Positions 300 through 27,223 of a stretch of 64,000 nucleotides of DNA are shown here, piece by piece (the first letter of the stretch is position 1; the number at the start of each line of letters is the position of its first letter). Origin of the DNA: Mustelus asterias (taxonomy: Eukaryota); assembly GCF_964213995.1 (NCBI RefSeq), contig NC_135806.1, forward strand, positions 139,748,001 through 139,812,000, in the 5' to 3' direction. The translations under genes were made by a program, and so were the position numbers. The notes beneath the pieces were generated by a model. It made no database searches. It was not told the DNA's origin and saw only the letters and a list, made by a program, of their open reading frames with translations.

Positions 300-343
300 C
301 ACAACATCCGCTACTGTCATTGACCAATCATTCAGAGAATGTT
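300..343 (-). CDS. Start of Ig V-domain exon of minus-strand Siglec-15-like receptor paralog (truncated by gap)
   Basis: Minus strand reads a (CT)n tract, then ccacag|AA CAT TCT CTG AAT GAT TGG TCA ATG ACA GTA GCG GAT GTT GTG = xHSLNDWSMTVADVV. This is homologous to the exon at 26844 (xLSLNDWSMTVADIM), including the upstream intron sequence. Confidence 0.85.
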
Positions 344-845
344 CTGTGGAGAGAGAGAGAGAGAGAGAATATTAAACCAGCGCAGGGACAGACATCAGTG
401 TTTCAATATCAAACTGCCAGTCTCAGCGGTGAGGTGGATTCTTCCAACACACCACGGGGGAAAGGTTACAATAGTTTATTCATGATTCGTATCGGGATTG
501 CCCCAGAGATTGCCCCACCTTCCTCTGATACAGCTCTAACACAGCATGCTAATCACAGGGAGAACATTCTAATGCAACTCTCTGCTCCAAGTCACAGATA
601 CAAATTGCTTATACAATTAGTCAGTACAACGAACATTTTTTGTTTTAAAATTTCAATCTTGCTTACAAAGGTGTATTATTAACCCTTCACCCAAAAGCGT
701 GTCCGCAGTTTTCTAACTGGTAAATGTCTGTTTCTCCTAACCAGTTTCTCCTCACCTTGCTGACAAGTTCTGCTGGTATCAGTTAGGACCTTGAGGTATA
801 AGCATTTGTCTAACATGTGATTTTACTCTAAATGTTTACTCTAAA

Positions 846-1112
846 TAGCTGTTCTGTCTGGAGACAATACACATCTCTTTAACCTGTGTTGAATGCTCCC
901 ACCACCCACATTGTCTGTACATTTAAGACCTGGCTGGCTGTAGAGATTTGCATTCTAATCAGTATTCTGTAATTTGATTTCTGTCTCTGTATGCCCTGTT
1001 TGAGAACAGATATCCACTCCATCTGACGAAGGAGCTGTGCTCCGAAAGCTTATGGTATTTGCTACCAAATAAACCTGTTGGACTTTAACCTGGTGTTGTG
1101 AGACTTCTTACT
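846..1112 (+). mobile_element. Penelope-like element 3'/pLTR fragment (single arm) in intron 1 of the minus-strand gene
   Basis: Near-identical to 31977-32244. Flanked by gattttactctaa (819-831 and 1113-1125). Confidence 0.85.
1019..1055 (+). ncRNA. Minimal hammerhead ribozyme (Penelope-associated)
   Basis: ccat CTGACGA a ggagc tgt gctcc GAAA gc TT atgg: conserved core, stem II GGAGC/GCTCC, stem I CCAU/AUGG. Confidence 0.75.
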
Positions 1113-1712
1113 GATTTTACTCTAATGCAGGGGTCTTACAACCATTCCCCTATACTAAACATGTTAATTTAACTCTTACACTCAATATACTGAGTCTGTC
1201 ATTGAGTGAACATAGGTCTTTCACAGTCAGATTTGAGATAGTTTGCAGACTGACATTGGGCAATATGGAGTGAGTTACAGGCTGGAATCCAATTGAAGGG
1301 TTTCAGAGTCCAATCTTGATGCAGCAACAGTGCAAACTTCCTCTTCAGAAACAATGTTGAAACTTTGGTGAAAATTGGAAAATCTCTCCCTCAAATGCTG
1401 TGGGGTCAATTGAGAATCTCAGAATTGAGATGGATTGTTTTCTGTTTGGTAAGGATATGAGAGATGTGGGACCAAGGCAAGTCAATGGAATTAGGATACT
1501 AATCAGCCTTGATCACATTGAATCTGAGCACAGGCTGGAGAGCCTGAATGTTTCATGTTCTTTGTACCTTGCTGGAAACCTGACAATCTTTCTCTACTCT
1601 GTTCCTCAAACTCTGCATTAGACATTCACCCACTCTCAACCCTACAGCGAAGTAGTAAAAAGGACAATTTAGGCAACAAGATAAATTTGATTAATTATTA
1701 AAAAGCACCTAC

Positions 1713-1773
1713 TGAGACCCCGTACTGAGACCGACAGCAAGACAGTGGAAAGCCAAACGTAAACAGAACCCAT
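1713..1773 (-). CDS. Signal-peptide (leader) exon of minus-strand receptor paralog
   Basis: ATG at 1773 gives MGSVYVWLSTVLLSVSVRGL+A|gtaggt. The phase-1 donor is compatible with the exon at 343. Homologous to 17983-18042, including the 5' flank. Confidence 0.8.
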
Positions 1774-2403
1774 CTCCAATTCTTCAGTGTTTTGTCTTTC
1801 TCACTCAGAGGTCCTTGTCTTTTGACACCAAAATACAGAAGTTGCTCAAAATGTTTCTTCACTTCTCGTGAAATCACCCAAAACTGATAAAAATCTCTCT
1901 AAATCTACTGTCTAACAGGAAGTCTGTTTAATTTTAGAAAAGTGTCAGAAAAACTCTGTCAGCAACTGTGGAGAGAGAAACAGTTTCAAGTCCTCTTCAG
2001 ATGTGTTTGGGAAACAGTAAGTCAGTTTATGTTGAGCAGAGAAAGCGAATAAAGTGTTGGTGACTAACACACCACGTCTATTTACGAAACGAAGGCACAA
2101 ACCACCGCATCAAGTGAGAATGGAAGATGCTGCATTAGCTTCCAATCTTGTTGTCAGAGTGGGATTAAATTGATCAGTGTGTAGAATGGGTGTAGAGTTT
2201 GCGTTACACGATTAACCCACACCCGAAGATTGTGCTGCACACAACAGGTAGAATTCACACTGTATGCACAGTTCCATGATTGTTATGTGTAGCCAGTGTA
2301 AACCAAGTTTATTGGCCATACCACATTGCCCCTTAGTGTCCCAAGATAGGTTAGTTGGATTAATGGGATAAATACGTGGGGTTATGGGTTAAGTCTGGGG
2401 TTG

Positions 2404-2713
2404 TGTGGTGGCACAGTGGCTAGCACTGCTGCCTCACAGCACCAGGGACCTGGGTTCGATTCCAGGCTTGGGTCACTGTCTGTGTGGAGTCTGCACATTC
2501 TCCCCGTGTCTGTGCTGGTTTCCTCCGGGTGCTCTGGTTTCCGCCCACAGTCCAAAAGACGTGCTGGTTAGGTGCATTGGCCATGCTAAATTCTCCCTCA
2601 GTGTACCTGAACAGGCCTTGGAGTGTGGCAACTAGGGGAATTTCACAGTAACTTCATTGCAGTGTTAATGTAAGCCTTACTTGTGACACGAATAAATAAA
2701 CTTTAAACTTTAA
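2404..2713 (+). mobile_element. V-SINE with alternative 3' tail, inserted in an HE1 remnant (~2313-2780)
   Basis: tRNA-like head, V-core gtctgtgtggag..gggtttcctccgggtgctc, and tail cacagtaacttcattgcagtgttaatgtaagcc..aataaataaa(ctttaaa)n. Confidence 0.75.
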
Positions 2714-2886
2714 AGACTTAGTGCAGATTCGATGAGCTGAATGGTCTCCTTCTGCACTGGAGGGATTCTATGATTCTATGAAAGCCACTTTCAACAGGGA
2801 GTAAAATGCTGGATTATGGTGCCAAACACAGTAAGGAGTCTAACAACACCAGGTTAAAGTCCAACAGGTTTATTTGGTAGCAAACG

Positions 2887-2923
2887 CCACTAGCTTTCAG
2901 AGCACTGCTCCTTCATCAGGTGA
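2887..2923 (-). ncRNA. Minimal hammerhead ribozyme
   Basis: Minus strand: tcac CTGATGA a ggagc agt gctct GAAA gc TA gtgg. Confidence 0.7.
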
Positions 2924-3250
2924 GTGGGAGATCTGCTAACAAACAGCAAACAGGGCATATAAAGTCACAAACTCAAGTTACAGAATAATGAATAATGATT
3001 GGAATGCGAGTCTTTACAGCTAATCAAGTCTTAAAGGTACAGACAATGTGAGTGGAGAGAGTATTAAGCACAGGTTAAAGACAATACACATCTCTTTAAC
3101 CTGTGCTTAATGCTCTCTCCACTCACCTTGTTTGTACCTTTAAGACTTGATTAGCTGTAAAGACTCGCATTCCAATCATTACTCATTATTCTGTAAATTG
3201 AGTTTGTGTCTTTATATGCCCTGTTTGCTGTTTGTTAGCAGACCTCCCAC

Positions 3251-3287
3251 TCACCTGACGAAGGAGCAGCGCTCCGAAAGCTAGTGG
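3251..3287 (+). ncRNA. Minimal hammerhead ribozyme
   Basis: tcac CTGACGA a ggagc agc gctcc GAAA gc TA gtgg. Confidence 0.75.
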
Positions 3288-3737
3288 CGTTTGCTACCAA
3301 ATAAACCTGTTGGACTTTAACCTGGTGTTGTTAGACTTCTTACTGTGTTTACCCCAGTCCAACGCCAGCATCTCCACATTATGGTGCCAAAGACAGAATG
3401 ATGGAGTTGAATGAGGGATATTTGTTGAATGGGGAAGTGCATCTGAAAATCGTTGATTTTTGGGACGAAGGGAGTGGGGAGATCAGCAATTGAGAATGCA
3501 GACTGTGGATGTTTTCCAATCCCACCAGTGTGAGCTGACCCCAGTCAATAAGGTAGCAATGTCCCACCTGCTCACAGCTGGGTTGTGTCTTTTCACCTGG
3601 GTCACCAGTAAGCTGGATTTTCGTTTTGAAGGTTAGAAACATACAGGGAAACTAGAAGCAGGAGTAGACCATTCAGCCCTTTGAGCCTGCTCTACCATTG
3701 ATTTTGAATATGGCTGATCAACAAATTCAATATCCTG

Positions 3738-4018
3738 ATTTTTTTTTATTCATTCATGGGACACGGGTGTCGCTGGCTGGCCAGCATTTATTACCCATGC
3801 CTAGTTGCCCGAGGGCAGTTGAGAGTCAATCACATTGCTGTGGCTCTGGAGTCACATGTGGGCCAGACCAGGTAAGGACGGCAGATTTCCTTCCCTAAAG
3901 GACATTAGTGAACCAGATGGGTTTTTCCGACAATCGACAATGGTTTCCTGGTCATCAGTAGATTCTTAATTCCAGATTTTTTTATTGAATTCAAATTCCA
4001 CCAAATGCTGTGGCGGAT
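3738..4018 (-). mobile_element. SINE of a second family (probably Meta-SINE type)
   Basis: Homologous to 8968-9313 and 12882-13185 (ggcagatttccttccctaaaggacattagtgaaccagatgg). Its tail is shared with LINE remnants at ~18083-18625 and ~61670-62053. Family name is from memory. Confidence 0.65.
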
Positions 4019-4029
4019 GGCCAGGGTTG

Positions 4030-5160
4030 TGCCCTTCCCTCATATCCCTTTAGCCCCAAGAGCTACATCTAATTTCTTAAAAGCACACAGCATGTGATTC
4101 AACACTTTCTGTGGTAGTGAATTCCACAGGTACACCACTCTGTGGGTGAAGAAATTTCTCCTCACCTCAGTCCTAAAAGGTTTACCCCTTATCCTTAAAC
4201 TATGAGCCCTAGTTTCTATAGGTATGTAAAGAGAAAAAGATTGACAAAAACAAATGTACAGTCAGAAAAGGGAGAATTCATAACGGAAAAAAGAAATGGT
4301 TGAGGAATTAAATTTATACTTTGCTTCAGTCTTCACAAAGGAAGACATGAATAATGTGCCAGAAGTTCTGAGAGAAATAAGTTTTAGTGAGGAGCTGAAG
4401 GAAATCAACATTAGTAGGGAAATGGTTTGGGGAAATTGATGGGATTGGAGGTGGGTAAATCTCCAGGTCCTGATAATCTTCATCCCAGAGTATTTAAGGA
4501 AGTGGCCCTGAAAGTAGTAGCTCCATTGGTGATTATTTTCCAAAATTCTTTGGACTCTGGACTTATTCCTGAAGATTGGAGGGTAGCTAATGTAAGCCCA
4601 AAGTAATTTCTCCTCATTTCTGTTTTAAATCTGCCACCCCTTATCCTAAAACTATGAATTCTTGTTCTAGATTGCCCCACAAGAGGAAACATTCTCTCCA
4701 GTCTACTTTGTCAATCCCCCTTATCACCTTGTACACCTTAATTAGATCTCCTCTCATTCTTCTAAACTCCAGGGAGTATAGGCCTAAACTTCCCAATCTC
4801 TCTTCAAAAGACAAACCTCTCAACTCTGGAATCAATCCAGTGAACCTCCTCTGAATTGCCTCCATTGCTACTATATCCCTCCTCAGGTAAGGGGACTAAA
4901 ACTGTACACAATATTCTAATTGCAGTCTCTTTGATACTTTGTACAGTAGCAGCAACACTTCACTATTTTTATATTCTATTCCTTTAGCAATAAATGGCAA
5001 GATTTATTTGCAATTTTCAGAAATGTTCCCCAGTCCATCATGGCCAATTCATGCCTCATACCATCATTGTTAACTTTATTGAGATTCAGGATCCTGGTCT
5101 CAGAATCAACTACCTTACTTTGGTAAAAATTTCTGTCATATTATGGTCACTCATCCCCAA
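4030..5160. mobile_element. Mosaic of degraded CR1 LINE fragments in both orientations
   Basis: Recognisable ORF2 pieces (QRRFT..GLYSLEFRRMRGDLI on minus; KSPGPD..HPRV on plus) with stops. Confidence 0.75.
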
Positions 5161-6659
5161 GGGTTCTCTCACTCCACTCCCTGAAGTGTCCCTCACAGGA
5201 CCCTGAGCCTCACGCTCCCTTTATCCTCCACTCTCAGAAGAATGTCTCTCACAAGTCCCCCGAGCCTCACGCTCCCTTTATCCTCCCCGAGCTTCATGCT
5301 CCCTTTATCCTCCCAGAAGAGTGTCTCGCAGGTCTGGTGCTCTCCACTCCCTGAAGGTAAGCGAGGGCCCCGAGTCTCATGCTCCTTTTATCCTCCCAGA
5401 AGAGTGTCCCTCGCAGGTTGGGTGTAATCTTGTGACCAGTTCCTTTTCTTTTAAACTGATGCAATTTCCAAAGTCCAAGCTACAATTCTGATGTAGAACT
5501 CAACTTGCGACAAAATGTAATAATACAAGTGGTTGCGGCTGAGCGATTGAAATGATGCCAAAAGGAAGTGGTACCTTAGTAAGCATAGACATGTTATTTT
5601 GAGCTGTTGGAGAACTAATTTCCAAGAAAAACTGTTAAATCCGTAGCAGGATTTATTGAAGTGTCATTGTGAGAAGTAAAACCTGGAAAGAAATCTTTGA
5701 TTAGTTGAGCTTGGTGACAAGCACAATAGTCTACATAATAATAATAAATGCAACAAGTAGAAGGATCATTAATGCTGAAATAGACAATAGCACCTCATTC
5801 GAGAGCTACTCCTGTCAACGAAAGACTTTGGTGATTTTCTCTTTCTTTGGAGCGTTAACTTTGTAGTTATGGCATAGTTGTCACACTAGTTGGGCTGATT
5901 GTGGAGTTTTTTTTGGGATACCAGTTTCTGAGTTATTGCTAAATCCTGTTTCGAGCTGGAGGAGCCAGTGATGCTGTTGTCAGTAATTGGATCAGTTGTT
6001 TATTGTCTTGGAAGATAATGTACGACTGCACTTTTATTGTTCCTCCCATTCTTGTATCCTTCAGGACAGAGCTACAGAGACAGTTTTAAGAGTTTGTTTG
6101 GTATCTGGCTGATTAGCAAATGTACTTGCGGTTCTTTTATTAATAACTGAATGGATTTCTTCCACTTAGATCTTAAACCGGGCATGTCTTTGAACCTCCT
6201 TGTTCAACCCACTACCTGGCTAAGAGTTGCAGGGCTCTGTTGGCTAGCTGCTTTGCCTATTTATCCCTGTTATCCTCTGATCAACCTTTTGAATTTCATC
6301 TGTTGTTTCTTGTTTTAAATTTAACTGTTGCTGTTGGGTCACGGAGTCAGAAAGTGTAGGGGCAGTAAAAGAATTATGGGCAAGTGTTTCTACCCCATAT
6401 ATCAGATAACATGGAGTTCTGGGGAACACTGTCTCTGATATAGATGAGGGACATTGTTAAGTGATGGCTGCACTCTCTGTATGGTGGTGGTCCGTTTGTT
6501 TCCCTGATTCTCAGCAGCAAGGCCAATTGCTTTCTTACCTCCTGGTTTTTATGTTCCACCAGTCCTGCTGATTGGGGATGATGTGGTGTGCTGTGGTCTA
6601 ACCCAATCCCCCTTTTTTCATATTAATCTTGAAAAACCTGAGAAGCCTGGGCTCTGCCT

Positions 6660-8085
6660 TGATTGGAGTGTAGTATCTTGGATGCACCATCCAAGGAGGC
6701 ACATGACATGCATAGGCAGCTGGGATCAAGCGGATCCCTTGAAGAGTATAGACAGTGTAGGACTGGAGTTAAGAGAGAAATCAGGAAGGCAAAAAGGGGA
6801 CACAAAATTGTTTTGGCAGATAAAGTAAAGGAGAATCCAAATTCTACAAATACATAAGAACATAAGAAATAGGAGCAGGAGTAGGCCATCCAGCCCCTCG
6901 AGCCTGCCCCGCCATTCAATAAGATCATGGCTGATCTGACGTGGATCAGTACCACTTACCCGCCTGATCCCCATAACCCTTAATTCCCTTACCGATCAGG
7001 AATCCATCCATCCGCGCTTTAAACATATTCAGCGAGGTAGCCTCCACCACCTCAGTGGGCAGAGAATTCCAGAGATTCACCACCCTCTGGGAGAAGAAGT
7101 TCCTCCTCAACTCTGTCTTAAACCGACCCCCCTTTATTTTGAGGCTGTGTCCTCTTTTGCCCATAAAGGGCAAAAGAATAACTAGGGAGAGAGTAGAGCC
7201 TCTTAAGGATCAACAAGGTCATCTATGTGTGGATCCACAAGAGATGGGTGAGATCCTAAATGAATATTTCTCATCAGTATTCACTGTTGAGAAAAGCATG
7301 GATGTTAGGGAACTTGGGGAAATACATAGTGATGTCTTGAGCAGTGTACATATAACAGAGAAGGAGGTGCTGGAAGTCTTAAAGGGCATCAAGGTAGATA
7401 AATCCCCAGGATCTGATGAGGTGTATCCCATGACATTATGGGAGGCTAGGGAGGAAATTGCGGGTCCCCTAGCAGAGATATTTGAATCATCGATAGTCAC
7501 AGGTGAGGTGCCTGAAAATTGGAGGGTGGCAATTGGAGGGTTGTTCCTTTGTTTAAGAAAGGCTGCAGGGAAAAGCCTGGGAACTACGGGCCGGTGAGCC
7601 TCACATCTGTGGTGGGTAAGTTGTTGGAAGGTATTTTGAGAGACAGGATCTACAGGCATTTAGAGAAGCAAGGACTGATTAGGGACAGTCAGCGTGGCTT
7701 TGTGAGTGGAAAATCATGTCTCACAAATTTGATTGAGTTTTTTGAAGGGGTAACCAAGAAGGTAGATGAGGGCAGTGCAGTTGATGTTGTCTACATGTAC
7801 TTCAGCAAGGCCTTTGACAAGGTACCATATGGTAGGTTGTTGCATAAGGTTAAATCTCATGGGATCCAGGGTGAGGTAGCCAAATGGATACAAAGTTGGC
7901 TTGATGGCAGAAGCCAGAGGGTGATTGTAGAGGGTTGTTTTTCAAACTGGAGGCCTGTGACCAGCGGTGTGCCTCAGGGATCAGTGCTGGGTCCACTGTT
8001 ATTTGTCATTTATATTAATGATTTGAATGAGAATTTAGTAGGCATGGTTAGTAAGTTTGCAGATGACACTAAGATTGGTGGCATA
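6660..8085 (+). mobile_element. CR1 LINE ORF2 fragment (RT region), interrupted at 6853-7155
   Basis: ORFs 7055..7597 and 7519..8136 with [30 protein letters not shown]. Confidence 0.9.
6853..7155 (-). mobile_element. Young 5'-truncated CR1 3' end
   Basis: Near-identical to ~53333-53636, with (cataagaa)n tail. Confidence 0.9.
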
Positions 8086-8597
8086 GGGCAATCGATGGGG
8101 GTGGTGGGTCCCGCTGCTACTCTGCATGGGGATTGATCTGGGATGGAGGGAGGCCAGTGATCGGGGCGGGCTGGGGGGTGGGGTGGTTTGCCAGAGGGGG
8201 GGCCTGCCTCCCGACATGGGTGTCGGCAGGTGAGGGGAGTGGAGGGATCAGCACTGCTGGGTGCGGGGGGTTGGACATCGGGGCGCTCCGGGGCAGAGTG
8301 GGTTGGGGCTGGCCCGGGAATTTTTGTGGGGGCCACAATCGGTCAGCACTGAGGGGGTCCCAGGCTGGCCAGGAAACGGGGAGTTTGACAGATCGGGACC
8401 ACTGCGCATGCGCAGAGTTTCAGAACTGTCAGACTCCGGCGTGAATAGGAAACCCCCTCGGTTTTTAATGAAATTCATGATTGGAACCTCTGCATTGCAC
8501 AGAGTGCGGAGATTCGAGTGTGGAGTTGAACTGAGAAAAAGGTCGTGATCTCGAACAGTTTTCCCACCAATTCAGCACTTTTGGGAGAATCGCCCCC
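8086..8597. mobile_element. GC-rich non-autonomous DNA-transposon-like fragment
   Basis: Ends ttttgggagaatcgcccc, complementary to the start gcgattctcccaaaa of the related element at ~27409. Confidence 0.45.
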
Positions 8598-8967
8598 AAC
8601 TGTGCAAAATGTAAATAAGTGTAATAGCAAAGGAATGAGGGCAGAATTGTCTGGAGTGGACGAGGAAAGGAGTTTAGCAGAAAAGGTGCTTGATCAGCAA
8701 TGGCAGACATTTATGAAAATAGCTCATGACTCACAACAGAGATCAATCCTAGTGAGGAAGCAGGATTCTAGATAGGGGATAAATCAACTGTGATTAACCA
8801 AGGAAGTTCAGATTAGTATTGAACTGAAAGAAAAAACATACAATGTGGCAAAGATCAGTGGTAAGCCAAAGGATTGGGAAAGTTTTAAAAAAACAACAAA
8901 AGATAACAAAACAAATAACAAGGGAGAAGAAAACCTGAGGGTAAACTAACAAGCGGCGGCACAGTGG

Positions 8968-9313
8968 TTTTTAAAAATCCAATCACTGGCTGGGCCAGTA
9001 CTTATTGCCCATCCCTGGTTGCCCTTGGAGGGCAGTTGAGAGTCAACCACATTGCTGTGGCTCTGGAGTTACAATTAGGCCAGACCAGGAAGGATGGCAG
9101 ATTTCCTTCCCTAAAGGACATTAGGGAACCAGATGGTTTTTTCTGACAATCAACAATAGTTTCATGGTCATCAGTAGATTTTTAGTTCCAGATATCTTTT
9201 ATTGAATACAAATTCCACCATCTGCTGTGGCGGGATTCAAACCCAGGTCCCCAGAACGTTAACTGAGTTTCTGAATTACCAGTCCAGCGATAATACCACT
9301 AGGCCATTGCCTC
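8968..9313 (-). mobile_element. SINE (same family as 3738-4018)
   Basis: Shared core plus tRNA-like B-box region gggattcaaaccc. Confidence 0.7.
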
Positions 9314-10015
9314 CAATTAGCACTTGATAAAAGAGTCACAGGACTGCCTTTAACTTTTAACAAAAGAATAAAAAGTTTAATTAACCAGAAAAGATTAACA
9401 ATAATGCACTGCTCCTGCACTCGCACTACACCTTCACAGATTCACACAGCTCTATATGGATTACACCAGTTATAAAATATCTTACACTCTAATGTTTTCA
9501 GTAAGTACACAGTCCATGTAAAACAATAGGTGAAATGAGGTCAGACATACCACTCGCTGAAACCAAATGTCAGGTGCCAACCTAAGTAACTTCTATGGAT
9601 TTCTCATCAAATCCCACCTCCCAACTCCAAATGCTTGTCACACTGTGAGCCAACTGGTCTCACTGGAATTCTGACTTCCACAAGAGGGTTTCCAAATACC
9701 ATTCCCGAAGAACACACTTTGAAAACTTCTCCCACACAAGGCTTTCTTTCAGATGCCTTCACCAAGGATCCACCTCCAGGATTTCGATCTTTCCTTTCAG
9801 TATTCATCTGCTCTGGATTGCCATATGCATTCAAAGTTTCACGCAATCTTTCAGGTACCCAGCCACGTCAATAGTATTAAGGTGTCACCAACCTTGGGAT
9901 TACTTCGGATGTCTGGCTTCCCGCTAGCCAACTTCACCCCAGGTCTGCAGCTTTCAGCTCTGTCTTTAACTGGGAGCCTCTTTCTACCATTTTCTTTAAC
10001 TTCAGTAAGCAGGAT

Positions 10016-10321
10016 GGCATGGTGGCACAGTGGTTAGCACTGCTGCTTCACAGCTCCAGGGACCCAGGTTCAATTCCCCCCACGTCTGTGTGGGTTTCCT
10101 TTGGATGCTCTGGTTTTCTCCCATAGTTCAAAGATGTGCAGGTTAGGTGGTTTGGCCATGCTAAATTGCCCCATGGTGTCCCAAGATGGATTAGCCATGG
10201 GAAATGTGTTGGGTTATGGGGATGGGGGGCGCGGAGAGGGCCTAGGTAAGACACCCTGTCAGAGAGTCGGTGCAGACTTGATGGGCTGAATGGCCTCTTC
10301 TGCACTGTAGGGATTCTATGA
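10016..10321 (+). mobile_element. HE1-type V-SINE, internally deleted
   Basis: Head ggcatggtggcacagtggttagcactgctgc and CR1-type tail gggctgaatggcctc..attctatg. Confidence 0.8.
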
Positions 10322-11024
10322 GTATCATTTTCAGATTCCAGTTCTTTGTCCCTTTGATTTCATGGGACTTCTCTTCATGGGATTTCTCTTTTCATTCCCT
10401 GGTTTCGAGATCTATCTGTTCTTTAGCTTCTGGAACTTGCTTTCTGCCCCTTACTCCAGTTGCCTCTGTTAGCAGGTTCAGTGGGAACTGCTTTCTTCTC
10501 GGCTGTCTGGTTTCCAACTAAACCACAAGTGCTGTTGCTTTTCAGTGTGGGCTCCTAGTTGCTAAACAATAGCTTAATATTTTTGTACAAATGAAATGTG
10601 ACCCTGCTCTATACCAGAAAGTGCAGCTGAAGATCAAGAACCAGAATCCACCAGTGAAGCCACAGATAACCAGACAAAGACTGACAGGCCCGCAAACTAT
10701 CTAAGTGACACAGAGTTGGAGCAGACCTCTTGTCCTTCAAAACCATCTCTGTCACCATTCAGACCATCCATTGGGAGAATTATGAAAAAGCCACGGAATA
10801 CAGAGATAAGTATAAGACAAAGCAGACGGATCAAAACAGAGTGTGACAATGGTCCAGTTGAAAATGTGGATGTTGAGCAACTGAGGAAGATCAAAATCCT
10901 AAAGGTGGATCCTTGGTGAAGGCATCTGAAAGAAAGCCTTGTGTGGGAGATGTTTTCAAAGTGTGTTCTTTGGAAACCCGCTGAAAAGATACTAAAAAGG
11001 CTAGCAGCACTCCAGGTAGAGAAG

Positions 11025-11282: not shown

Positions 11283-11428
11283 TTCCTAAATGGCTGAGGC
11301 CCCAGCACTGACCCTTGTAGCACCCACTCGTCACTGCCTGCCAACTTGAAAGTTCCCTGTTTATGTCCACTCTCTGTTTTCGATTCTTTAACCAATCCTC
11401 TATCCATGCTAATATATTACCCCCAGGT

Positions 11429-16757: not shown

Positions 16758-17785
16758 TGTGGAATTTGATGGACATTTTGAGGCCTAGATTTAAAGCTGA
16801 TGGAGAGGACGGAGTTTTATGGCCGCCTTACACCCATTTTGTGGTGGGAAAATGTTGTAAATTCGGGCGTAAAGCGGCTAGCGCGAATGGCGCTGGTTTT
16901 CGCGCCTGTTGCGATTTTATGACATCTGGATTTCCGGCGTGGTCACCGGAAATGGGCGAGAGGCTGATTAATTTATTTAAATTTAGGTATATGTTCAATT
17001 CAATGTGTTTAGCGCGCCCTCCGCTCAATCATCCAGGCTCAATTGACTTTATGGCCTCGCCGGGAGAGGTTCTCTCCGGCGACGAAAGCACCTGCTCCCC
17101 ACAAAACGGGGAACAGTCGTGTTGGCCTCGGTGGTGGAACTGGAGGCCCGTGGGGAGGTTGAGTGCAAAGTGGGGGTGCCCCTTGGGCCGTGCCAGCCTG
17201 GCAGCTGGGCAATGCCCAATGGGGATCTGGACAATGCCCACTGGGCAATGCCAGGGGGTGGGGCCTGTGGGGATGGGCCAAGGGGCAGGCCAGGGGACGG
17301 GGCCAATTGGGGCAGGTCAGGGGTGGGGCCAATGGGGGGAAGGGGGCCTGCTGCCGCTATGCTTGTGATTGATGGGGGAGGGAGGGGAGGCACAATTGTT
17401 CTGGATGGTGGAGCCACGATCGGACTGGGTGGCGGGGGCCGCATCTTGGGCCACGGGCCCCCGCGATTCCGGGGGAGTGGTGAGCTAGTTGAGGCTGTCT
17501 ACAGTAGCAGGGGCCTGACAGCTCTCTCTCTGTTTGTCAGACCCCTGCTACTGTTAATCCACATGTGCAGCATCAGAGGTCTGCACATGTGCAATACCTC
17601 CCTCTACAGATTGTCTGGTGAGTTAAGCCCCGCCCATAGCCTCTCTGGCTAGAACCTGACTAGACCATCTTTTCAGAGGCAGAGTGCGTAAGATTGGGTG
17701 TAAAAACACACTCAAAAAACAGATCTGAACTCTCCCATTTTCAGACTAGCTGGACACTTAGAAAATATCTCGTAAAATTCCACCC
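16758..17785. mobile_element. GC-rich MITE-like element just upstream of the plus-strand leader exon
   Basis: Imperfect terminal inverted repeats (gtggaattt / aaattccac) and an abrupt GC shift. Confidence 0.45.
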
Positions 17786-17982
17786 AGAATCTCTCATTCT
17801 CTGAAATGCTGAGGTTTGTGCCACTTTTCCAGTTTTAAATAAATATGTCTGTTACTGCTCAACACAAGTGGATGTCCCATTCGCTACTAAATTGAATGAC
17901 AATGATCAACATCTCTTGCGGGTTTCAGCATCAAGAGAGAAGGATGACTGAGTAAGAAAGAAGAAATACTGAAGAACTGGCG

Positions 17983-18042
17983 ATGGGTTCTATCCATATT
18001 TGGCTCTCGAGACTCCTGCTGTCAGTTTCAGTGCGGGGTCAC
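17983..18042 (+). pseudogene. Leader exon of plus-strand paralog
   Basis: MGSIHIWLSRLLLSVSVRGH|gtaagt, paralogous to 1713-1773. One nt shorter (phase 0), so out of phase with the phase-1 V exon. Confidence 0.8.
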
Positions 18043-18790
18043 GTAAGTTCTCTCTAATATTAAACATTCAATTTTAAATTTATTTTGCATTCATTCACAG
18101 GATTGTGTGTTGCTGGCAAGGCCAACATTTATTGCCCATCCCTAATTGTGTAGAAGGTGGTTTGGGACTGCCTTCTTGAACCACTGTCGTAGGTACTCCT
18201 ACAATGCTGTTAGGAATGGAGTTTCAGGATTTTGACTCTGACATTAATGGAATGGTGATATATTTGCAAGTCCGGATGGCGTGTATTTTGGAGGGGAACT
18301 TGCTGCCCATGTTCTTCCGGTTGGTGGGGGTGACGGGTCTGGAAGATGCTAATGAAAGAGTGGTTGTCATATATCTTGGAGATGGTACACACTGCTGCCA
18401 CTGTGCACCTGGAGTGGAGGGAGTGAATGTTTAACGTGGTGATGGAATGCCGATCATGTGCAGGGTTTTTGCCTCAATGACGTTGATCTTCTTGTTTGAT
18501 CTGCACTCATCCAGTTTGCGGAGAATATTCAATCACGGTCCTGACTTGTGTTGTGGACAGGCGTTCAAGATTGTGAGGCGAGCTACTCACATTCCCAGCC
18601 TCTGACTTGACACCAGAGCATTTATGTTAATTCATTCTCACTGTGCTCTTCTTCTCACTGACTTTCTCTCTTTCCTTCTCCGTGTGTATATATTTCTCTC
18701 TTCCTTTGTGTCTGCCTCTCTGACACCCTTTTCATTTCCAATGTGCCCTCAAGCCTCCCGCAGTTCTCACCCAGATGAGGGAAAACATTT

Positions 18791-19604
18791 TCACACAGCG
18801 AGTGGTTAGGATCTGGAATGCACTGTCTGAGAGTGTGGTGGAGACAGATTCACACAGTGAGTGGTTAGGATCTGGAATGTACTGTCTGAGATTGTGGTGG
18901 AGACAGATTCACACAGCGAGTGGTTAGGATCTGGAATGCACTGTCTGAGAGTGTGGTGGAGACAGATTCACACAGCGAGTGGTTAGGATCTCGAATGCAC
19001 TGTCTGAGAGTGTGGTGGAGACAGATTCACACAGCGAGTGGTTAGGGTCTGGAATGCACTGTCTGAGAGTGTGGTGGAGACAGATTCACACAGCGAGTGG
19101 TTAGGACCCGGAATGCACTGTCTGAGAGTGTGGTGGAGACAGATTCACACAGCGAGTGGTTAGGATCTGGAATGCACTGTCTGAGAGTGTGGTGGAGACA
19201 GATTCACACAGAGAGTGGTTAGGATGTGGAATGTACTGTCTGAGAGTGTGGTGGAGACAGATTCACACAGCGAGTGGTTAGGACCCGGAATGCACTGTCT
19301 GAGAGTGTGGTGGAGACAGATTCACACAGCGAGTGGTTAGGATCTGGAATGCACTGTCTGAGAGTGTGGTGGAGACAGATTCACACAGAGAGTGGTTAGG
19401 ACCCGGAATGCACTATCTGAGAGGGTGGGAGAGACAGATTCACACAGAGAGTGGTTAGGACCCGGAATGTACTGTCTGAGAGTGTGGTGGAGACAGATTC
19501 ACACAGAGAGTGGTTAGGACCCGGAATGCACTGTCTGTGAGTGTGGTGGAGACAGATTCACACAGAGAGTGGTTAGGACCCGGAATGCACTGTCTGTGAG
19601 TGTG
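18791..19604 (+). repeat. 59-bp minisatellite, ~14 copies
   Basis: Unit tcacacagcgagtggttaggatctggaatgcactgtctgagagtgtggtggagacagat starts at 18791, 18850, 18909 ... 19558. Confidence 0.97.
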
Positions 19605-20740
19605 CCTTTCAAAAACAATTGGGTAAGTACCTGGAGAGAAAACCAAAATGTGAAGGGCGACAGGGAAAGGGTGGGAGAGTGGTGCTGGCTGAGTTGTTTT
19701 TGCAGCAAGCTGGTACGGACACGGTGGTTTGAATGTTCTCTGTTGATGCTGTAACTGTTCTATGATTCTATGTGACAAGATCAGTTAAACCTCAGGTCAA
19801 TGTTGACCCCCAGGCAGGGCCCAGGGTGCAGACAGCACTAATCATTGGGGCTTGTGCCCAGCCTCCTTCCTCTAAATGAAATTTCTTGTCTCTCAGCCTG
19901 AGCAGGGAGGCAAAACTGCAGACTCAAAAGTTGAACTTGAAACAAACCCAAACCTCCAGGCCCGGTTCTGATTTTTTTTTACAGTTTGTCCGTCGCTGTC
20001 AATTTCACTCAATTGCTTCACTGTCCTTTGGGGAGTTTTGTGGCTCCAATTTTTCAAAAGCCCACTGGAAAACCACAGAGCTGTCTGATGGTCAACAACA
20101 GGAATACAGCAACTGAGAGAGTTCCTGTTTCAGAAATGGTAAATAAAACCTCTATTTTAAAGTCCTCTGTGGTTCAGGGGGGTGGGTGTTGGCAGATGGG
20201 TGAGGTTGCTGGACTGTTGGAAGTATGAGTGTATGTTGGGGGCTGTTGAAGGGGTGGGATGGCAGAGGTTAGACTCCTTACTGTGGTTACCCCAGTCCAA
20301 CGCCGGCATCTCCACATCAGTTCACAGTGTACAATACAATTTGTGTGCCAATTTCTGGAGGAAGGGGAAACAATGTGGTTCTTGAGTTTCGGATGCACTG
20401 AATTCCTGTACCTTGTTACATTCTTCTCTGAAAATTTCAGTTCTGCAATTCAATCTACTGTATACTGTCTCGGAGGCTGATGCTACATTTCTGACTAGCA
20501 AATCCTGGAGTTCATGTCATTAGCGTAAAAGGAGCGGATGCCATTTATGGTATTTCAATGAGAGTGAAGTCAGAATGGTAAGGTTGTATTAAGAGTTAAA
20601 TAGTTTTGTAAATGAAATATCTTTGTAGCTACTTTCCTAACATCAATTGACTGCTCTGTGATTAACTGTCCTTAAAAAAATCGTAAGAAGTTTAACAACA
20701 CCAGGTTAAAGTCCAACAGGTTTATTTGGTAACAAAAGCC

Positions 20741-20779
20741 ACACAAGCTTTCGAGGCTCTGAGCCCCTTCTTCAGGTGA
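20741..20779 (-). ncRNA. Minimal hammerhead ribozyme
   Basis: Reverse complement of 25735-25773. Confidence 0.7.
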
Positions 20780-20987
20780 GTGGGAATTCTGTTCACAAAC
20801 AGAACTTATAAAGACACAGACTCAATTTACATGAATAATGGTTGGAATGCGAATACTTACAACTAATCCAGTCTTTAAGAAACAAAACAATGGGAGTGGA
20901 GAGAGCATCAAGACAGGCTAAAAAGATGTGTATTGTCTCCAGACAAGACAGCCAGTGAAACTCTGCAGGTCCACGCAACTGTGGGAG

Positions 20988-22982
20988 TTACAAATAGTGT
21001 GACATAAACCCAATATCCCGGTTGAGGCCGTCCTTGTGTGTGCGGAACTTGGCTATCAGTTTCTGCTCAGCGACTCTGCGCTGTCGTGTGTCGCGAAGGC
21101 CGCCTTGGAGAACGCTTACCCGAATATCAGAGGCCGAATGCCCGTGACCGCTGAAGTGCTCCCCAACAGGAAGAGAACAGTCTTGCCTGGTGATTGTCGA
21201 GCGGTGTTCATTCATCCGTTGTCGCAGCGTCTGCATAGTTTCCCCAATGTACCATGCCTTGGGACATCCTTTCTTGCAGCGTATCAGGTAGACAACGTTG
21301 GCCGAGTTGCAAGAGTATGTACCGTGTACCTGGTGGATGGTGTTCTCACGTGAGATGATGGCATCTGTGTCGATGATCCGGCACGTCTTGCAGAGGTTGC
21401 TGTGGCAGGGTTGTGTGGTGTCTTGGTCACTGTTCTCCTGAAGGCTGGGTAGTTTGCTGCGGACAATGGTCTGTTTGAGGTTGTGCGGTTGTTTGAAGGC
21501 AAGAAGTGGGGGTGTGGGGATGGCCTTGGCGAGATGTTCGTCTTCATCAATGACATGTTGAAGGCTCCGGAGGAGATGCCGTAGCTTCTCCGCTCCGGGG
21601 AAGTACTGGACAACGAAGGGTACTCTGTCCACTGTGTCCCGTGTTTGTCTTCTGAGGAGGTCGGTGCGGTTTTTCGCTGTGGCGCGTTGGAACTGTTGAT
21701 CAATGAGTCTAGCGCCATATCCTGTTCTTATGAGGGCATCTTTCAGCGTCTGGAGGTGTCTGTTGCGATCCTCCTCATCCGAGCAGATCCTGTGTATACG
21801 GAGGGCTTGTCCGTAGGGGATGGCTTCTTTAACGTGTTTAGGGTGGAAGCTGGAGAAGTGGAGCATCGTGAGGTTATCCGTGGGCTTGCGGTACAGTGAG
21901 GTGCTGAGGTGACCGTCCTTAATGGAGATGCGCGTGTCCAAGAATGCAACCGATTCCGGAGAGTAGTCTATGGTGAGCCTGATGGTGGGATGGAACTTGT
22001 TGATGTCATCATAGAGTTGTTTCAGTGATTGTTCACCATGAGTCCAAAGGAAGAAAATGTCATCGATGTATCTAGTGTATAGCATCGGTTGAAGGTCCCG
22101 TGCGGTGAAGAAGTCTTGTTCGAACCTGTGCATGAAGATGTTGGCATATTGAGGTGCAAATTTGGTCCCCATGGCTGTTCCGTGTGTCTGGATGAAGAAC
22201 TGGTTGTTGAAGGTGAAGATATTGTGGTCCAGGATGAAGCGGATGAGATGTAAAATTGCATCTGGAAACTGGCAGTTGTTGGCGCTGAGCACTGAGGCCG
22301 TTGCAGCAATGCCATCGTCATGGGGGATGCTGGTGTAGAGTGCTGAGACATCCATTGTGACGAGGAGCGCTCCTGGTTCAACTGCTCCATGTGTGCCGAG
22401 TTTCTGTAGGAAGTCCGTCGTGTCGCGACAAAAGCTGGGGGTTCTTTGTACAATGGGTTTCAGGATGCCCTCGACATAGCCGGAGAGGTTCTCGCACAGG
22501 GTCCCATTGCCCGATACGATGGGACGGCCGGGTGTGTTTGCCTTGTGTATCTTCGGGAGGCAGTAGAGATCTCCAACGCGGGGAGTACGTGGGATGAGAG
22601 CACGGAGGGTGTTCTGAAGGTCCGGATCAAAGGTCTTGATCAGAGTGTTGAGTTGACGGGTGTGTTCTTTGGTCGGATCTGCAGGTAACTGTCTGTAGTG
22701 TTCCTCGTTGTTGAGTTGTCGGTACACTTCTTTGCAGTATTCCGTTCTGTTCAGTATGACGATGGCCCCTCCTTTGTCTGCTGGTTTGATGACAATGTTG
22801 CGGTTGGTCTTGAGAGCGTGGATGGCGTTACGTTGTGCTTGGGTGATGTTCGGGGCTGTCTTGTGAGTGCGGCTGATGAATTTGGTGTTGACGCACCTCC
22901 TGACGGCTTGGGCATACATGTCAAGTCGAGGGCAGCGGCCTTCCGGAGGAGTCCAATTCGACTCTTTCCTCTTCGGATGCAC
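20988..22982 (-). CDS. Penelope RT + GIY-YIG endonuclease ORF, 5'-truncated but uninterrupted
   Basis: LPKIHK, GRPIVS, DVSALYTSIP, GTAMG, RYIDD, CHSNLCKTC, VVYLIRC..WYIGET. Confidence 0.93.
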   Translation of the reverse strand: MHPKRKESNWTPPEGRCPRLDMYAQAVRRCVNTKFISRTHKTAPNITQAQRNAIHALKTNRNIVIKPADKGGAIVILNRTEYCKEVYRQLNNEEHYRQLPADPTKEHTRQLNTLIKTFDPDLQNTLRALIPRTPRVGDLYCLPKIHKANTPGRPIVSGNGTLCENLSGYVEGILKPIVQRTPSFCRDTTDFLQKLGTHGAVEPGALLVTMDVSALYTSIPHDDGIAATASVLSANNCQFPDAILHLIRFILDHNIFTFNNQFFIQTHGTAMGTKFAPQYANIFMHRFEQDFFTARDLQPMLYTRYIDDIFFLWTHGEQSLKQLYDDINKFHPTIRLTIDYSPESVAFLDTRISIKDGHLSTSLYRKPTDNLTMLHFSSFHPKHVKEAIPYGQALRIHRICSDEEDRNRHLQTLKDALIRTGYGARLIDQQFQRATAKNRTDLLRRQTRDTVDRVPFVVQYFPGAEKLRHLLRSLQHVIDEDEHLAKAIPTPPLLAFKQPHNLKQTIVRSKLPSLQENSDQDTTQPCHSNLCKTCRIIDTDAIISRENTIHQVHGTYSCNSANVVYLIRCKKGCPKAWYIGETMQTLRQRMNEHRSTITRQDCSLPVGEHFSGHGHSASDIRVSVLQGGLRDTRQRRVAEQKLIAKFRTHKDGLNRDIGFMSHYL

Positions 22983-23015
22983 TGCGGATCTCTCTGTCGG
23001 CTGTTCCGGTTCATT

Positions 23016-25526
23016 CAGACTACGCTGAGAGACTTTGCCGTCGCACCTCTCTCACCCTCCTCAACCACCTCATACACCAACTCCACAGCAAACGCCGCAG
23101 CCTGGAAACCAAGATCGAATCCATATTCTCAACTTGCGCTCAGGACGCAGACCAGCTGCGAAACTCTGCCAAGCAGACGAGACAAAGGAACTACACCATC
23201 TACATGCACACCAAGAACAGGAAACTTGAGAAACTCGGCATCACCACCAGCAGCAACCAAGCCTCCCCCGGTACCACAGTAGAAAACAGTACCACTGCAG
23301 GGAAGTCCATTGTCAACTTGTCCAACTACACACTTCAACCAGATGAAATCGAAGTTCTCAGCCGAGGGCTTAATTTTTGCCCCACCACCAAAATAGACCC
23401 CATCAGTCTCGCAGCAGACACAGAGGAATTCATCAGGCGAATGAGGCTGAGGGAGTTCTTCCACAAACCCCAAGAGGCCAACAACGAACACAATGAGACA
23501 GCCAATGAACCGGAACAGCCGACAGAGAGATCCGCAGTGCATCCGAAGAGGAAAGAGTCGAATTGGACTCCTCCGGAAGGCCGCTGCCCTCGACTTGACA
23601 TGTATGCCCAAGCCGTCAGGAGGTGCGTCAACACCAAATTCATCAGCCGCACTCACAAGACAGCCCCGAACATCACCCAAGCACAACGTAACGCCATCCA
23701 CGCTCTCAAGACCAACCGCAACATTGTCATCAAACCAGCAGACAAAGGAGGGGCCATCGTCATACTGAACAGAACGGATTACTGCAAAGAAGTGTACCGA
23801 CAACTCAACAACGAGGAACACTACAGACAGTTACCTGCAGATCCGACCAAAGAACACACCCGTCAACTCAACACTCTGATCAAGACCTTTGATCCGGACC
23901 TTCAGAACACCCTCCGTGCTCTCATCCCACGTACTCCCCGCGTTGGAGATCTCTACTGCCTCCCGAAGATACACAAGGCAAACACACCCGGCCGTCCCAT
24001 CGTATCGGGCAATGGGACCCTGTGCGAGAACCTCTCCGGCTATGTCGAGGGCATCCTGAAACCCATTGTACAAAGAACCCCCAGCTTTTGTCGCGACACG
24101 ACGGACTTCCTACAGAAACTCGGCACACATGGAGCAGTTGAACCAGGAGCGCTCCTCGTCACAATGGATGTCTCGGCACTCTACACCAGCATCCCCCATG
24201 ACGATGGCATTGCTGCAACGGCCTCAGTGCTCAGCGCCAACAACTGCCAGTTTCCAGATGCAATTTTACATCTCATCCGCTTCATCCTGGACCACAATAT
24301 CTTCACCTTCAACAACCAGTTCTTCATCCAGACACACGGAACAGCCATGGGGACCAAATTTGCACCTCAATATGCCAACATCTTCATGCACAGGTTCGAA
24401 CAAGACTTCTTCACCGCACGGGACCTTCAACCGATGCTATACACTAGATACATCGATGACATTTTCTTCCTTTGGACTCATGGTGAACAATCACTGAAAC
24501 AACTCTATGATGACATCGACAAGTTCCATCCCACCATCAGACTCACCATAGACTACTCTCCGGAGTCGGTTGCATTCTTGGACACGCGCATCTCCATTAA
24601 GGACGGTCACCTCAGCACCTCACTGTACCGCAAGCCCACGGATAACCTCACGATGCTCCACTTCTCCAGCTTCCACCCTAAACACGTTAAAGAAGCCATC
24701 CCCTACGGACAAGCCCTCCGTATACACAGGATCTGCTCGGATGAGGAGGAACAGACACCTCCAGACGCTGAAAGATGCCCTCATAAGAACAGGATATGGC
24801 GCTAGACTCATTGATCAACAGTTCCAACACGCCACAGCGAAAAACCGCACCGACCTCCTCAGAAGACAAACACGGGACACAGTGGACAGAGTACCCTTCG
24901 TTGTCCAGTACTTCCCCGGAGCGGAGAAGCTACGGCATCTCCTCCGGAGCCTTCAACATGTCATTGATGAAGACGAACATCTCGCCAAGGCCATCCCCAC
25001 ACCCCCACTTCTTGCCTTCAAACAACCGCACAACCTCAAACAGACCATTGTCCGCAGCAAACTACCCAGCCTTCAGGAGAACAGTGACCAAGACACCACA
25101 CAACCCTGCCACAGCAACCTCTGCAAGACGTGCCGGATCATCGACACAGATGCCATCATCTCACGTGAGAACACCATCCACCAGGTACACGGTACATACT
25201 CTTGCAACTCGGCCAACGTTGTCTACCTGATACGCTGCAAGAAAGGATGTCCCAAGGCATGGTACATTGGGGAAACTATGCAGACGCTGCGACAACGGAT
25301 GAATGAACACCGCTCGACAATCACCAGGCAAGACTGTTCTCTTCCTGTTGGGGAGCACTTCAGCGGTCACGGGCATTCGGCCTCTGATATTCGGGTAAGC
25401 GTTCTCCAAGGCGGCCTTCGCGACACACGACAGCGCAGAGTCACTGAGCAGAAACTGATAGCCAAGTTCCGCACACACAAGGACGGCCTCAACCGGGATA
25501 TTGGGTTTATGTCACACTATTTGTAA
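23016..25526 (+). pseudogene. Penelope RT + GIY-YIG ORF, longer at the 5' end, frameshifted by a 5-bp deletion near 24750
   Basis: ORFs 23204..24805 and 24570..25526. The other arm has gagga(tcgca)acagac. Confidence 0.92.
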
Positions 25527-25734
25527 CTCCCACAGTTGCGTGGACCTGCAGAGTTTCACTGGCTGTCTTGTCTGGAGACAATACACATCTTTTTAGCCTG
25601 TCTTGATGCTCTCTCCACTCCCATTGTTTTGTTTCTTAAAGACTGGATTAGTTGTAAGTATTCGCATTCCAACCATTATTCATGTAAATTGAGTCTGTGT
25701 CTTTATAAGTTCTGTTTGTGAACAGAATTCCCAC

Positions 25735-25773
25735 TCACCTGAAGAAGGGGCTCAGAGCCTCGAAAGCTTGTGT
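25735..25773 (+). ncRNA. Minimal hammerhead ribozyme
   Basis: tcac CTGAAGA a ggggct cag agcctc GAAA gc TT gtg. Confidence 0.72.
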
Positions 25774-26843
25774 GGCTTTTGCTACCAAATAAACCTGTTG
25801 GACTTTAACCTGGTGTTGTTAAACTTCTTACTGTGTTTACCCCAGTCCAACGCCGGCATCTCCACATCTTAAAAAAATCAGCATTGGACCTTCAATTTCA
25901 CCATTGCTGCAATCATTCTGCCTACTGTGTGTAAAGGTAATGAAAGGAAGACAAAACTCTCATTAATACAGCACCTTTAGGCCAACAGTGCTTGGTGGGC
26001 ATCTCGGTGGCTGGTGTGCATCATCATACCAAGGAATGATACTTTGCTTTAATTTATTAAGCTTCTTCTTGCTGTTACATTTTAATTACACTGCCCCATT
26101 AGGGGCTGTCACCCCTGTATTTTATTGATAATTGTTTTATTAAAAAGAGTTTATATTGGGCAATATTTGTAACCAGATGCCAAGAATGGGCTTTGTCATT
26201 TTACAAAGGTTGGTGAATTGATTGGTGAATCTTGAAAGGGGGAAAATATAATACGTGATTGTGGTGAGGGGGGTGGGAGGAATAAGGGGCCCAGGAAGAT
26301 GAGGACATCAGGCTCCATGAATTCCCTCGCTTGCTCTGTCCCCAGGATGTTGATGTCAGAATCCATCACTGGTAATGCCTTTGCATTGCAAAGGAAGATG
26401 GTTCAATTCTCTCCTAGCAAAGTAGGAAAAATAAAATCCTACTGCACTAAAGGAGGCCATTTAGCCCATTGTGCCTAATCAGGCCAAGAGAAAACTATCC
26501 AGTCTAATGCTATCCGCTCGTTCTACCTAAAGTCATATCCAAGTGTTGTGATGAGGATCTCTTCCTCTATCACCCTTTCAGTGTGCTCCAGAAACCCACT
26601 ATCTTCCAGGTGAAAACAAATTACTCTTGAATCTCACTCTCATCCTTTCAGCAGTTATTTTATATCTATCACCCTTGCTTATTGACCTATCTTGCTGGGG
26701 GTTGTCATTGTATGGCACTTACATGCCATGAATCAAACCTGTCACTTTTCAGCCCAAGCCTGAATGCTATTCAGGTCTTGCAGGTTTTTTAGAAAACACA
26801 TGTTTGTCCCTGTGCTGTTCTAATATTCTCTCTCTCTCTCCAG

Positions 26844-27223
26844 AGCTTTCACTTAATGATTGGTCAATGACAGTGGCGGATATTATGAGTGTTGAGGAAG
26901 GGGGATCCGCTGTCCTGCCGTGCACTTTCACCCACCCACACCCTGATCGCACAGTCACCGGCTCTGTGAGATGGTACCACCCCGATTCAAAGGCTTACAA
27001 AGTTACCTTTAAGTGTACATATTCCGGCGGGTCCAGGGTGAAGCATGTGAGAGTGGGAAACAGCGGGATGGTGGGAGTCGATTCAAATTTGTGGGGAACT
27101 TCAGCAACAATGATGTCTCAATAATGATGGAGCGGCTGAGCTGGGTGGAAAGCGGTGAATATCACTGCCAGGTGAAACTCAATGTTGGAACATTTCAAAC
27201 ATAGAAATCAACAATTCTGACAA
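26844..27223 (+). pseudogene. Ig V-set domain exon 1, Siglec-15-like, disabled
   Basis: Acceptor ctctctccag. Reads LSLNDWSMTVADIMSVEEGGSAVLPCTFTHPH..VRWY..VTFKC, frameshift near 27025, then EAC..SRFKFVGNFSNNDVSIMMERL..SGEYHCQVKL..T*. Matches recalled Siglec-15 motifs (WSM, LPCTFTHPH, FRC..C, RF..GN...ND.S..ERL, YFCRV). TAG at 27202-27204. The 3' boundary is uncertain. Confidence 0.85.

Follow-up and report, generated by a model that had tools for sequence, protein, structure and literature searches.

Organisation of the receptor cluster

The 64,000-nucleotide stretch of Mustelus asterias DNA analysed here (the window, C6:139748001-139812000) contains exons of two divergently oriented genes for immunoglobulin (Ig) receptors, gene A on the minus strand, which is split by an assembly gap and continues beyond the left end of the window, and gene B on the plus strand, a pseudogene. 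Both belong to a cluster of receptors related to Siglec-15, with four genes of one subfamily (subfamily I, genes A to D) and three related genes (X1, X2 and X3), in the order X1(+), X2(-), X3(-), SLC5A6(+), A(-), B(+), C(+), D(+) and a pikachurin-like gene(+). Exons were mapped with relatives in 464 kb of sequence surrounding the window and in 200 kb surrounding its paralogue, gene D; for the interval between C and D, about 790 kb of which lie beyond the sequence read, whole-genome searches found no further family member.

Genes A to D have a common exon anatomy (leader-V1-V2-transmembrane-tail) and come in two types, three of them (A, B and C) with a lysine in the transmembrane segment (Lys-type) and one, gene D, with a tail carrying immunoreceptor tyrosine-based inhibitory motifs (ITIM-type). 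The Lys-bearing transmembrane exon is 98-99/100 bases identical among A, B and C, and the tail exon of A and C encodes 11 residues, none of them tyrosine. No match to this tail exon was found for gene B; a weak third match to the activating tail/3' untranslated region exon lies beyond gene C at C6:139896445-139896590. Gene C is fully open and has Gln at the position of the arginine that Siglec-15 carries in the F strand of its V domain. Gene D, 1 Mb from the window and opposite in orientation to gene A, matches protein P0001 (source label Mustelus asterias LOC144495190); it keeps the F-strand Arg in V1 (YYCRVEL), its transmembrane segment is neutral, and its tail bears the motifs CTYADI, CTYASL and VTYAAV, two of them ITIM-like. 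X1 and X3 form a second inverted pair, in which X1 combines a neutral transmembrane segment with tyrosine motifs and X3 has the Lys-type segment. X2 is 72-78% identical to a Scyliorhinus protein that its source names SIGLEC15, and forms a clade of its own in a tree of 60 domains.

A preliminary description of the window had pointed to two homologous leader exons facing away from each other 16.2 kb apart, with homologous 5' flanks, each followed by a V exon beginning with SLNDWSMTVAD. The start codons lie at 1773 (minus) and 17983 (plus), 16,210 bp apart, both flank strings match the sequence exactly, and the V exon starts are found at 338 (minus) and 26849 (plus). The likeness is far above chance for leaders and V starts alike: the leader regions align locally with a score of 107, where 1806 control stretches taken from the window reach 28 at most, and the V starts also with 107, where 2518 such stretches reach 29 at most. 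That description was silent on the frameshift and TAG in the plus-strand V exon, and on the continuation of this gene within the window as a broken second V exon and a transmembrane exon. With its six lesions (Table 1), gene B is a pseudogene. As both head-to-head genes have the Lys transmembrane exon (99/100 bases identical), A and B represent two activating-type copies and not an on/off pair; a paired-receptor system, as had been proposed, is supported, with likely partners other than those first suggested.

In gene A, the leader, V2, transmembrane and tail exons are all open, have proper AG/GT ends and are joined in frame. The last visible residues of its V1 (DVV) are those of the activating member P0008, and the intron beyond the gap matches the V1-V2 intron of gene B in order. 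Four sequencing runs aligned to positions 300-1900 gave no cover of 300-353 and no leader-to-V1 joint. G-rich low-complexity repeat occupies positions 1-99 and some 550 bp to the left of the window, adjoining the gap, and is its likely cause.

Table 1. Exons and neighbouring features of the cluster. Positions are those of the window unless preceded by C6, in which case they are contig positions.
Feature	Position	Strand	Remarks
Gene A leader exon	1713..1773	-	61 nt, phase 1, GT donor, in-frame splice to V1 start
Gene A V1 exon, first 44 nt	300..343	-	AG acceptor, open frame up to gap
120-bp tract identical to gene D (intron end and V1 start)	305..424	-	120/120; likely gene-conversion tract
Assembly gap hiding (or replacing) remainder of gene A V1	100..299	.	
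Gene A V2 exon	C6:139745563-139745910	-	left of window
Gene A Lys transmembrane exon	C6:139741488-139741587	-	left of window; short tail exon also there
Gene B leader exon	17983..18042	+	60 nt (lacks one base), phase 0, not in frame with V1
Gene B V1 exon	26844..27228	+	frameshift near 27028, stop codon TAG at 27202, loss of the donor site near 27229, Arg position occupied by Gln
Gene B V2 exon	59192..59540	+	one-base frameshift near 59350, TGA near 59384
Gene B transmembrane exon with Lys	60572..60671	+	surrounding 613 bp 98.5% identical to gene A
X1 (V-V-C2 receptor; second inverted pair)	C6:139451835-139467031	+	
X2 (V-C2 gene)	C6:139509195-139518638	-	neutral transmembrane segment
X3 (V-V-C2 receptor; second inverted pair)	C6:139585479-139600350	-	
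SLC5A6 (multivitamin transporter) exons	C6:139678540-139716134	+	inside cluster
Pikachurin-like exons	C6:140852880-140890421	+	after gene D

Mosaic structure of gene A

Gene A is a mosaic, with a leader like that of C (58/61 bases identical, against 49/61, or 80%, for D), a D-like V1 start and V2, and a B-like transmembrane region. Its V2 shares 341/348 bases (98.0%) with D, 319 with C and 299 with B, and the D-like sequence ends at the V2 exon borders, the introns on both sides being B/C-like. Synonymous differences between A and D amount to 1/82 sites in V2 and 6/18 in the leader (Fisher p 1e-4). The outer border of the 120-bp tract identical to D is spanned without differences by contigs from runs X3 and X4 (records 17 and 25; run X3 is not to be confused with gene X3), which are other samples of one study, of a kind not on record and possibly from the same animal. 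Comparison of the pair X1/X3 gives a similar picture, with identities of 75% in V1, 96% in V2 and 96% in C2 and synonymous differences of 40/78, 1/92 and 4/67, respectively; the A/D pattern is repeated in this pair and in five other genera. No significant excess of amino-acid changes was detected in V2 (nonsynonymous above synonymous proportion; Fisher p 0.13-1.0).

A tree of 23 ectodomains, 11 of the Lys-type (including one assigned from its tail because the model skips the transmembrane segment) and 12 of the ITIM-type, is grouped by lineage and not by tail: tail type changes 9 times, and placing the 11 Lys-type rows in a single clade is rejected (approximately unbiased test, p-AU 9.6e-6). 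Taken together, the exon-limited mosaic, the synonymous contrast and this rejection point to concerted evolution of the ligand-binding exons. The comparison of these sequences thus suggests that repeated gene conversion probably maintains the similarity of the V exons, and that the partner of gene A is probably the ITIM-tailed gene D.

Distribution in cartilaginous fishes

The preliminary description had assumed an expansion in cartilaginous fishes, and this was borne out: a protein search for relatives returned 39 proteins among 314 candidates, 38 of them from sharks and rays. Both tail types are present in Scyliorhinus, Heterodontus, Chiloscyllium, Hemiscyllium and Heptranchias, as well as among rays, and the Lys transmembrane sequence is common to rays and sharks; Lys-type and ITIM-type relatives of the X1/X3 subfamily also occur in Callorhinchus. 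Machine annotations of the family exist for many shark and ray species, but the names they give are not consistent (uncharacterized, SIGLEC15, SIGLEC12, pIgR-like, JAML-like, A33-like, CD33-like). In Mustelus asterias itself gene D is annotated, and gene C has no close match in the protein collection among 28 of 271 candidates. Some relatives (P0002-P0006, P0050, P0053 and P0217) contain repeated V units, perhaps fused gene models in part: carpet sharks show V1-V2-V1-V2, Callorhinchus has three V1, P0050 has seven V and lungfish SIGLEC15 two.

The F-strand arginine was surveyed in 52 proteins with 46 distinct V1. By automatic class it is present in 22/23 inhibitory and 5/11 activating members, in 10/11 without a transmembrane call and in the only neutral one (1/1). 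After reclassing by hand, in which P0008 and P0032 were moved to the Lys-type (the Lys transmembrane segment being visible), gene C was added, P0010 was set aside (no tail tyrosine motif; Cys) and 11 rows stayed unclassed, it is found in 22/22 ITIM-type and 7/14 Lys-type V1, rows that are not independent of each other. The residue has been lost in no fewer than four lineages (Mustelus, carpet sharks, Heptranchias and Rhinoraja). Within the cluster D has the residue, B and C have Gln, and in A this part of V1 is hidden by the gap.

Relation to Siglec-15

The proposed relationship with Siglec-15 is supported for V1 by profile and fold comparisons and by a tree of 32 domains. A V1 profile built from 10 sequences, including three bony-vertebrate relatives, scores 127 bits with Siglec-15, 64 with CD33, 50 with TIM-3, 42 with pIgR and 35 with PILR, and neither CD300 nor TREM has a place among the best 60 of its 76 PDB matches. 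With a single shark protein as query, Siglec-15 is again the top match (E 7.5e-14); NKp30 gave weak matches (E 0.04) and was discarded. The first-ranked fold match of a predicted model of the gene D V1 (predicted local distance difference test score, pLDDT, 83) is likewise Siglec-15 (7zoz). With profiles of SIGLEC15 and SIGLEC15-like proteins V1 obtains 77-79 bits, with that of classic Siglecs 42. The V domain of Siglec-15 carries an extra C'-C'' cysteine pair (PMC10264397), and the pair is found, judged by sequence only, in 24/24 V1. Gene D retains the counterparts of Siglec-15 Arg143 and Trp44, with an aromatic residue in place of Tyr154, and the transmembrane Lys aligns with that of the SIGLEC15 LGxK motif in the 7/7 chondrichthyan Lys-type proteins shown. 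V2 has no Arg, and its nearest matches are TIM-2, Siglec-15 and CD276, at similarly low scores. A C2-type domain is present in the sister subfamilies, X1/X3 and X2, and X2 reaches 102 bits on the SIGLEC15 profile against 77 for subfamily I.

Trees were calculated after removal of redundant and long-branched domains, with either 32/72 kept or 12/72 left out, and the labels of some unnamed rows (SIGLEC15 and outgroup) were assigned from their sequences. In the 32-domain tree, classic Siglecs are separated (100/97) from a group, without a settled internal order, that comprises canonical SIGLEC15, the 'SIGLEC15-like' proteins of bony vertebrates, a PILR-like row and all the shark subfamilies, and a forced clade of SIGLEC15 and subfamily I is not rejected (p-AU 0.38). 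In the 60-domain tree, obtained with a simpler model and with the TIM row misplaced, canonical SIGLEC15 forms its own clade without shark rows (97/90).

Synteny with the SIGLEC15 locus, proposed as a check in the preliminary description, was tested and not found. The human neighbours of SIGLEC15 are SLC14A1 and EPG5. In this genome, SLC14A genes lie at C1:140.27-140.48 Mb, with no Siglec-15-like Ig exon within 200 kb 3' of them, and the receptor cluster is on C6 by SLC5A6 and the pikachurin-like gene. The best genome matches of a coelacanth SIGLEC15 query fall in the C6 cluster (23 matches of 101 candidates), and no separate V-C2-Lys SIGLEC15 was seen among these best candidates. On the one hand the separate location of SLC14A and the V-V architecture, on the other the coelacanth matches in the cluster, leave orthology with SIGLEC15 neither shown nor excluded. 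A search with the ATP synthase family gave no match on C6 and one at C1:169 Mb of no firm identity, a result that was not used.

Further V exons were seen elsewhere in the genome. Two near-identical ones with YYCRVE (L105 and L107, at 3432-3797 and 35781-36143 of the unplaced contig C2156) look PILR-like, and a cluster of classic Siglec-type V exons (YYFRIEF; L112-L114) at C20:0.24-0.76 Mb is separate from that on C6.

Discussion

In this study, we consider it probable (about 0.7) that the window holds gene A, split by the gap, and the pseudogene B of a shark cluster of Siglec-15-related two-V receptors, in which short-tailed forms with a Lys transmembrane segment are likely activating receptors that signal by way of a DAP12-type adaptor, those with ITIM tails are likely inhibitory, and repeated conversion probably preserves the similarity of the V exons. 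Gene D would then be an inhibitory receptor binding self sialic acid via its conserved F-strand Arg and recruiting SHP phosphatases. Gene A, if whole, would mirror the binding surface of D and signal through a DAP12-type adaptor, the route by which Siglec-14 and -16 activate (PMC6288428, PMC7226832), and would serve as a counter-receptor, directed at microbes taking advantage of D. Activating members lacking the Arg, such as C, may bind ligands other than sialic acid.

A number of observations weigh against this reading. Only 44 of the roughly 408 bases of the gene A V1 are visible, the other 364 (89%) being missing at the gap; the sequence on the far side of the gap is G-rich repeat and not V1, and a genome search found no copy of the missing piece elsewhere in the assembly. 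Synonymous divergence in V2 is also low between C and D (3.5/82), so homogenisation appears to be family-wide rather than strictly pairwise, and the 23-ectodomain protein tree alone cannot tell conversion from repeated chimera formation. D lies 1 Mb from A, against 9 kb between SIGLEC11 and SIGLEC16 (PMC5701461). The second domain of genes A to D is V-set and not C2-set, making the ectodomain V-V instead of V-C2; gene D shows no evident equivalent of the Siglec-15 contact residue Tyr87; and subfamily I stands loosely beside classic Siglecs (82/82) in the 60-domain tree. Zebrafish Siglec-15 bound the tested glycans poorly (PMC7226832), and a 2014 survey reported no FcR-gamma in shark genomes (PMC4016189). 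A genome search for the ITAM family (immunoreceptor tyrosine-based activation motif) was blank, which is not evidence of absence.

It is conceivable, if unlikely, that gene A is dead too, its V1 broken at the G-rich repeat, in which case the window would hold relics only and C would be the working activating gene. The short visible V1 and the low-complexity DNA past the gap would agree with this, as would the death of the neighbouring B and the frequency of null activating alleles in human paired Siglecs (PMC6288428). However, the other four exons of A are open and join in frame with proper splice ends where B has six lesions, and both the DVV residues shared with P0008 and the intron past the gap, which matches that of B in order, speak against this reading. 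Instead of recurrent conversion, the likeness of A to D might also reflect a single chimera-forming event (unequal crossover or exon shuffling), purifying selection or misassembly where the contig ends. The identical tract does end at the contig edge, V2 is conserved in all members, and the protein tree is ambiguous in the sense given above; yet the D-like stretch stops at both V2 borders with B/C-like introns around it, synonymous sites are homogenised as well, the contigs of the two other samples bridge the tract border, and the pattern recurs in X1/X3 and five other genera, all of which makes such an origin highly improbable.

Whether these receptors are sialic-acid lectins at all can be questioned, since protein- or lipid-binding V-V receptors, with a PILR-, TIM- or CD300/MDIR-like function, could have arisen from a Siglec-15-like V domain. 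The lack of C2 in subfamily I, the Arg-less V2 with its equally distant neighbours, the loss of the Arg in half of the Lys-type members, the pIgR-like, JAML-like and A33-like names given to some models, and the position of the presumed PILR-like gene of this genome in the same tree group as V1 are consistent with this idea. We nevertheless find it improbable, given that all ITIM-type V1 keep the Arg while adjacent residues vary, that Trp44 and the aromatic at the Tyr154 position are retained, and that CD300/TREM are outside the best PDB matches. In turn, the Lys-type genes could be direct shark orthologues of SIGLEC15 that were locally amplified, as the cysteine pattern, the Arg, the LGxK motif, the coelacanth matches and the tolerated joint clade would allow. 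This is again highly improbable: the genes are V-V and several instead of V-C2 and single, SLC14A lies on C1 with no such Ig exon in the 200 kb 3' of it, canonical SIGLEC15 excludes shark rows from its clade in the 60-domain tree, and the SIGLEC15 profile gives a higher score to X2, a V-C2 gene, although its own transmembrane segment is neutral.

In comparison with Siglec-15 (7zoz, PMC10264397), the shark genes share V1 sequence and fold, the four-cysteine pattern, the F-strand Arg (kept in D, Gln in B and C), Trp44 and the transmembrane Lys in its LGxK motif, and differ in their V-set second domain, in forming a multigene cluster with ITIM-tailed members, in the short Tyr-free tail of the Lys-type and in having SLC5A6 and a pikachurin-like gene as neighbours instead of SLC14A. 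A close parallel to the paired arrangement is provided by Siglec-11/16, for which concerted evolution has been described (PMC5701461), and Siglec-5/14: opposite-orientation inhibitory and activating partners, ligand-binding exons homogenised in each lineage, and activating members prone to decay (PMC5701461, PMC6288428). Those are CD33-related primate genes with V-C2 ectodomains, 9 kb apart, whereas the shark genes have a V domain of the Siglec-15 branch and a partner 1 Mb away, in a pattern spanning sharks, rays and, for the second subfamily, a chimaera. A related V domain with a neutral transmembrane segment is also seen in non-canonical 'SIGLEC15-like' proteins that databases list for coelacanth, caecilian, turtle, sturgeon and bowfin, and turtle P0047 and caecilian P0185 show CTYA-type and VTY-type tail motifs as in gene D; they differ in their V-C2 architecture, and trees do not settle their relation to the shark subfamilies. 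PILR also binds sialic acid via an Arg. Both PILR-alpha/beta and the skate MDIRs (PMC3031540) resemble the present family as multigene activating/inhibitory V-type receptors. The putative PILR-like pair of this genome is separate, on C2156, and the MDIRs differ by their published description as CD300/TREM/pIgR-like (PMC3031540), V1 being Siglec-15-like here.

The shark and ray family of Siglec-15-related activating and inhibitory receptors has so far been uncharacterised. No account of it was found in a full-text literature search that covered a minority of subscription journals, nor in PMC8455134, PMC3031540, PMC4016189 and bioRxiv 10.64898/2026.08.25.746757, so that the family may still have been described in print. 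Conversion that maintains the likeness of Siglec pairs has been described for primate CD33-related genes, and Siglec-15 has been regarded as a conserved receptor of the activating type. If the proposed reading is true, the paired design with its conversion signature would be far older or would have arisen twice, and the cluster would supply named candidates for recognition of self through sialic acid in the most ancient immune system of jawed vertebrates. It would also bear on the origin of SIGLEC15, which is a drug target in cancer and bone disease. As a tentative extension, chondrichthyans might possess an ancient self-sialic-acid checkpoint of the Siglec-15 and not the CD33 branch, with two inverted inhibitory/activating pairs at a single locus that exon-limited conversion has brought back into step in each lineage since sharks and rays parted (for the second pair, since the split from the chimaera) and activating members repeatedly dropping the Arg; canonical single-copy SIGLEC15 would then be the surviving activating remnant of a formerly larger paired family, the inhibitory arm persisting unrecognised in coelacanth, amphibians and turtles.

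Repeats in the first intron of gene B

The first intron of gene B contains a retroelement with reverse transcriptase and GIY-YIG (window 20683-25831), presumably Penelope-like; part of it is repeated in inverted orientation, with 99.4% identity over 2333 bp. A 59-bp minisatellite lies in the same intron (window 18790-19604), with 13.8 copies and 94% matches.

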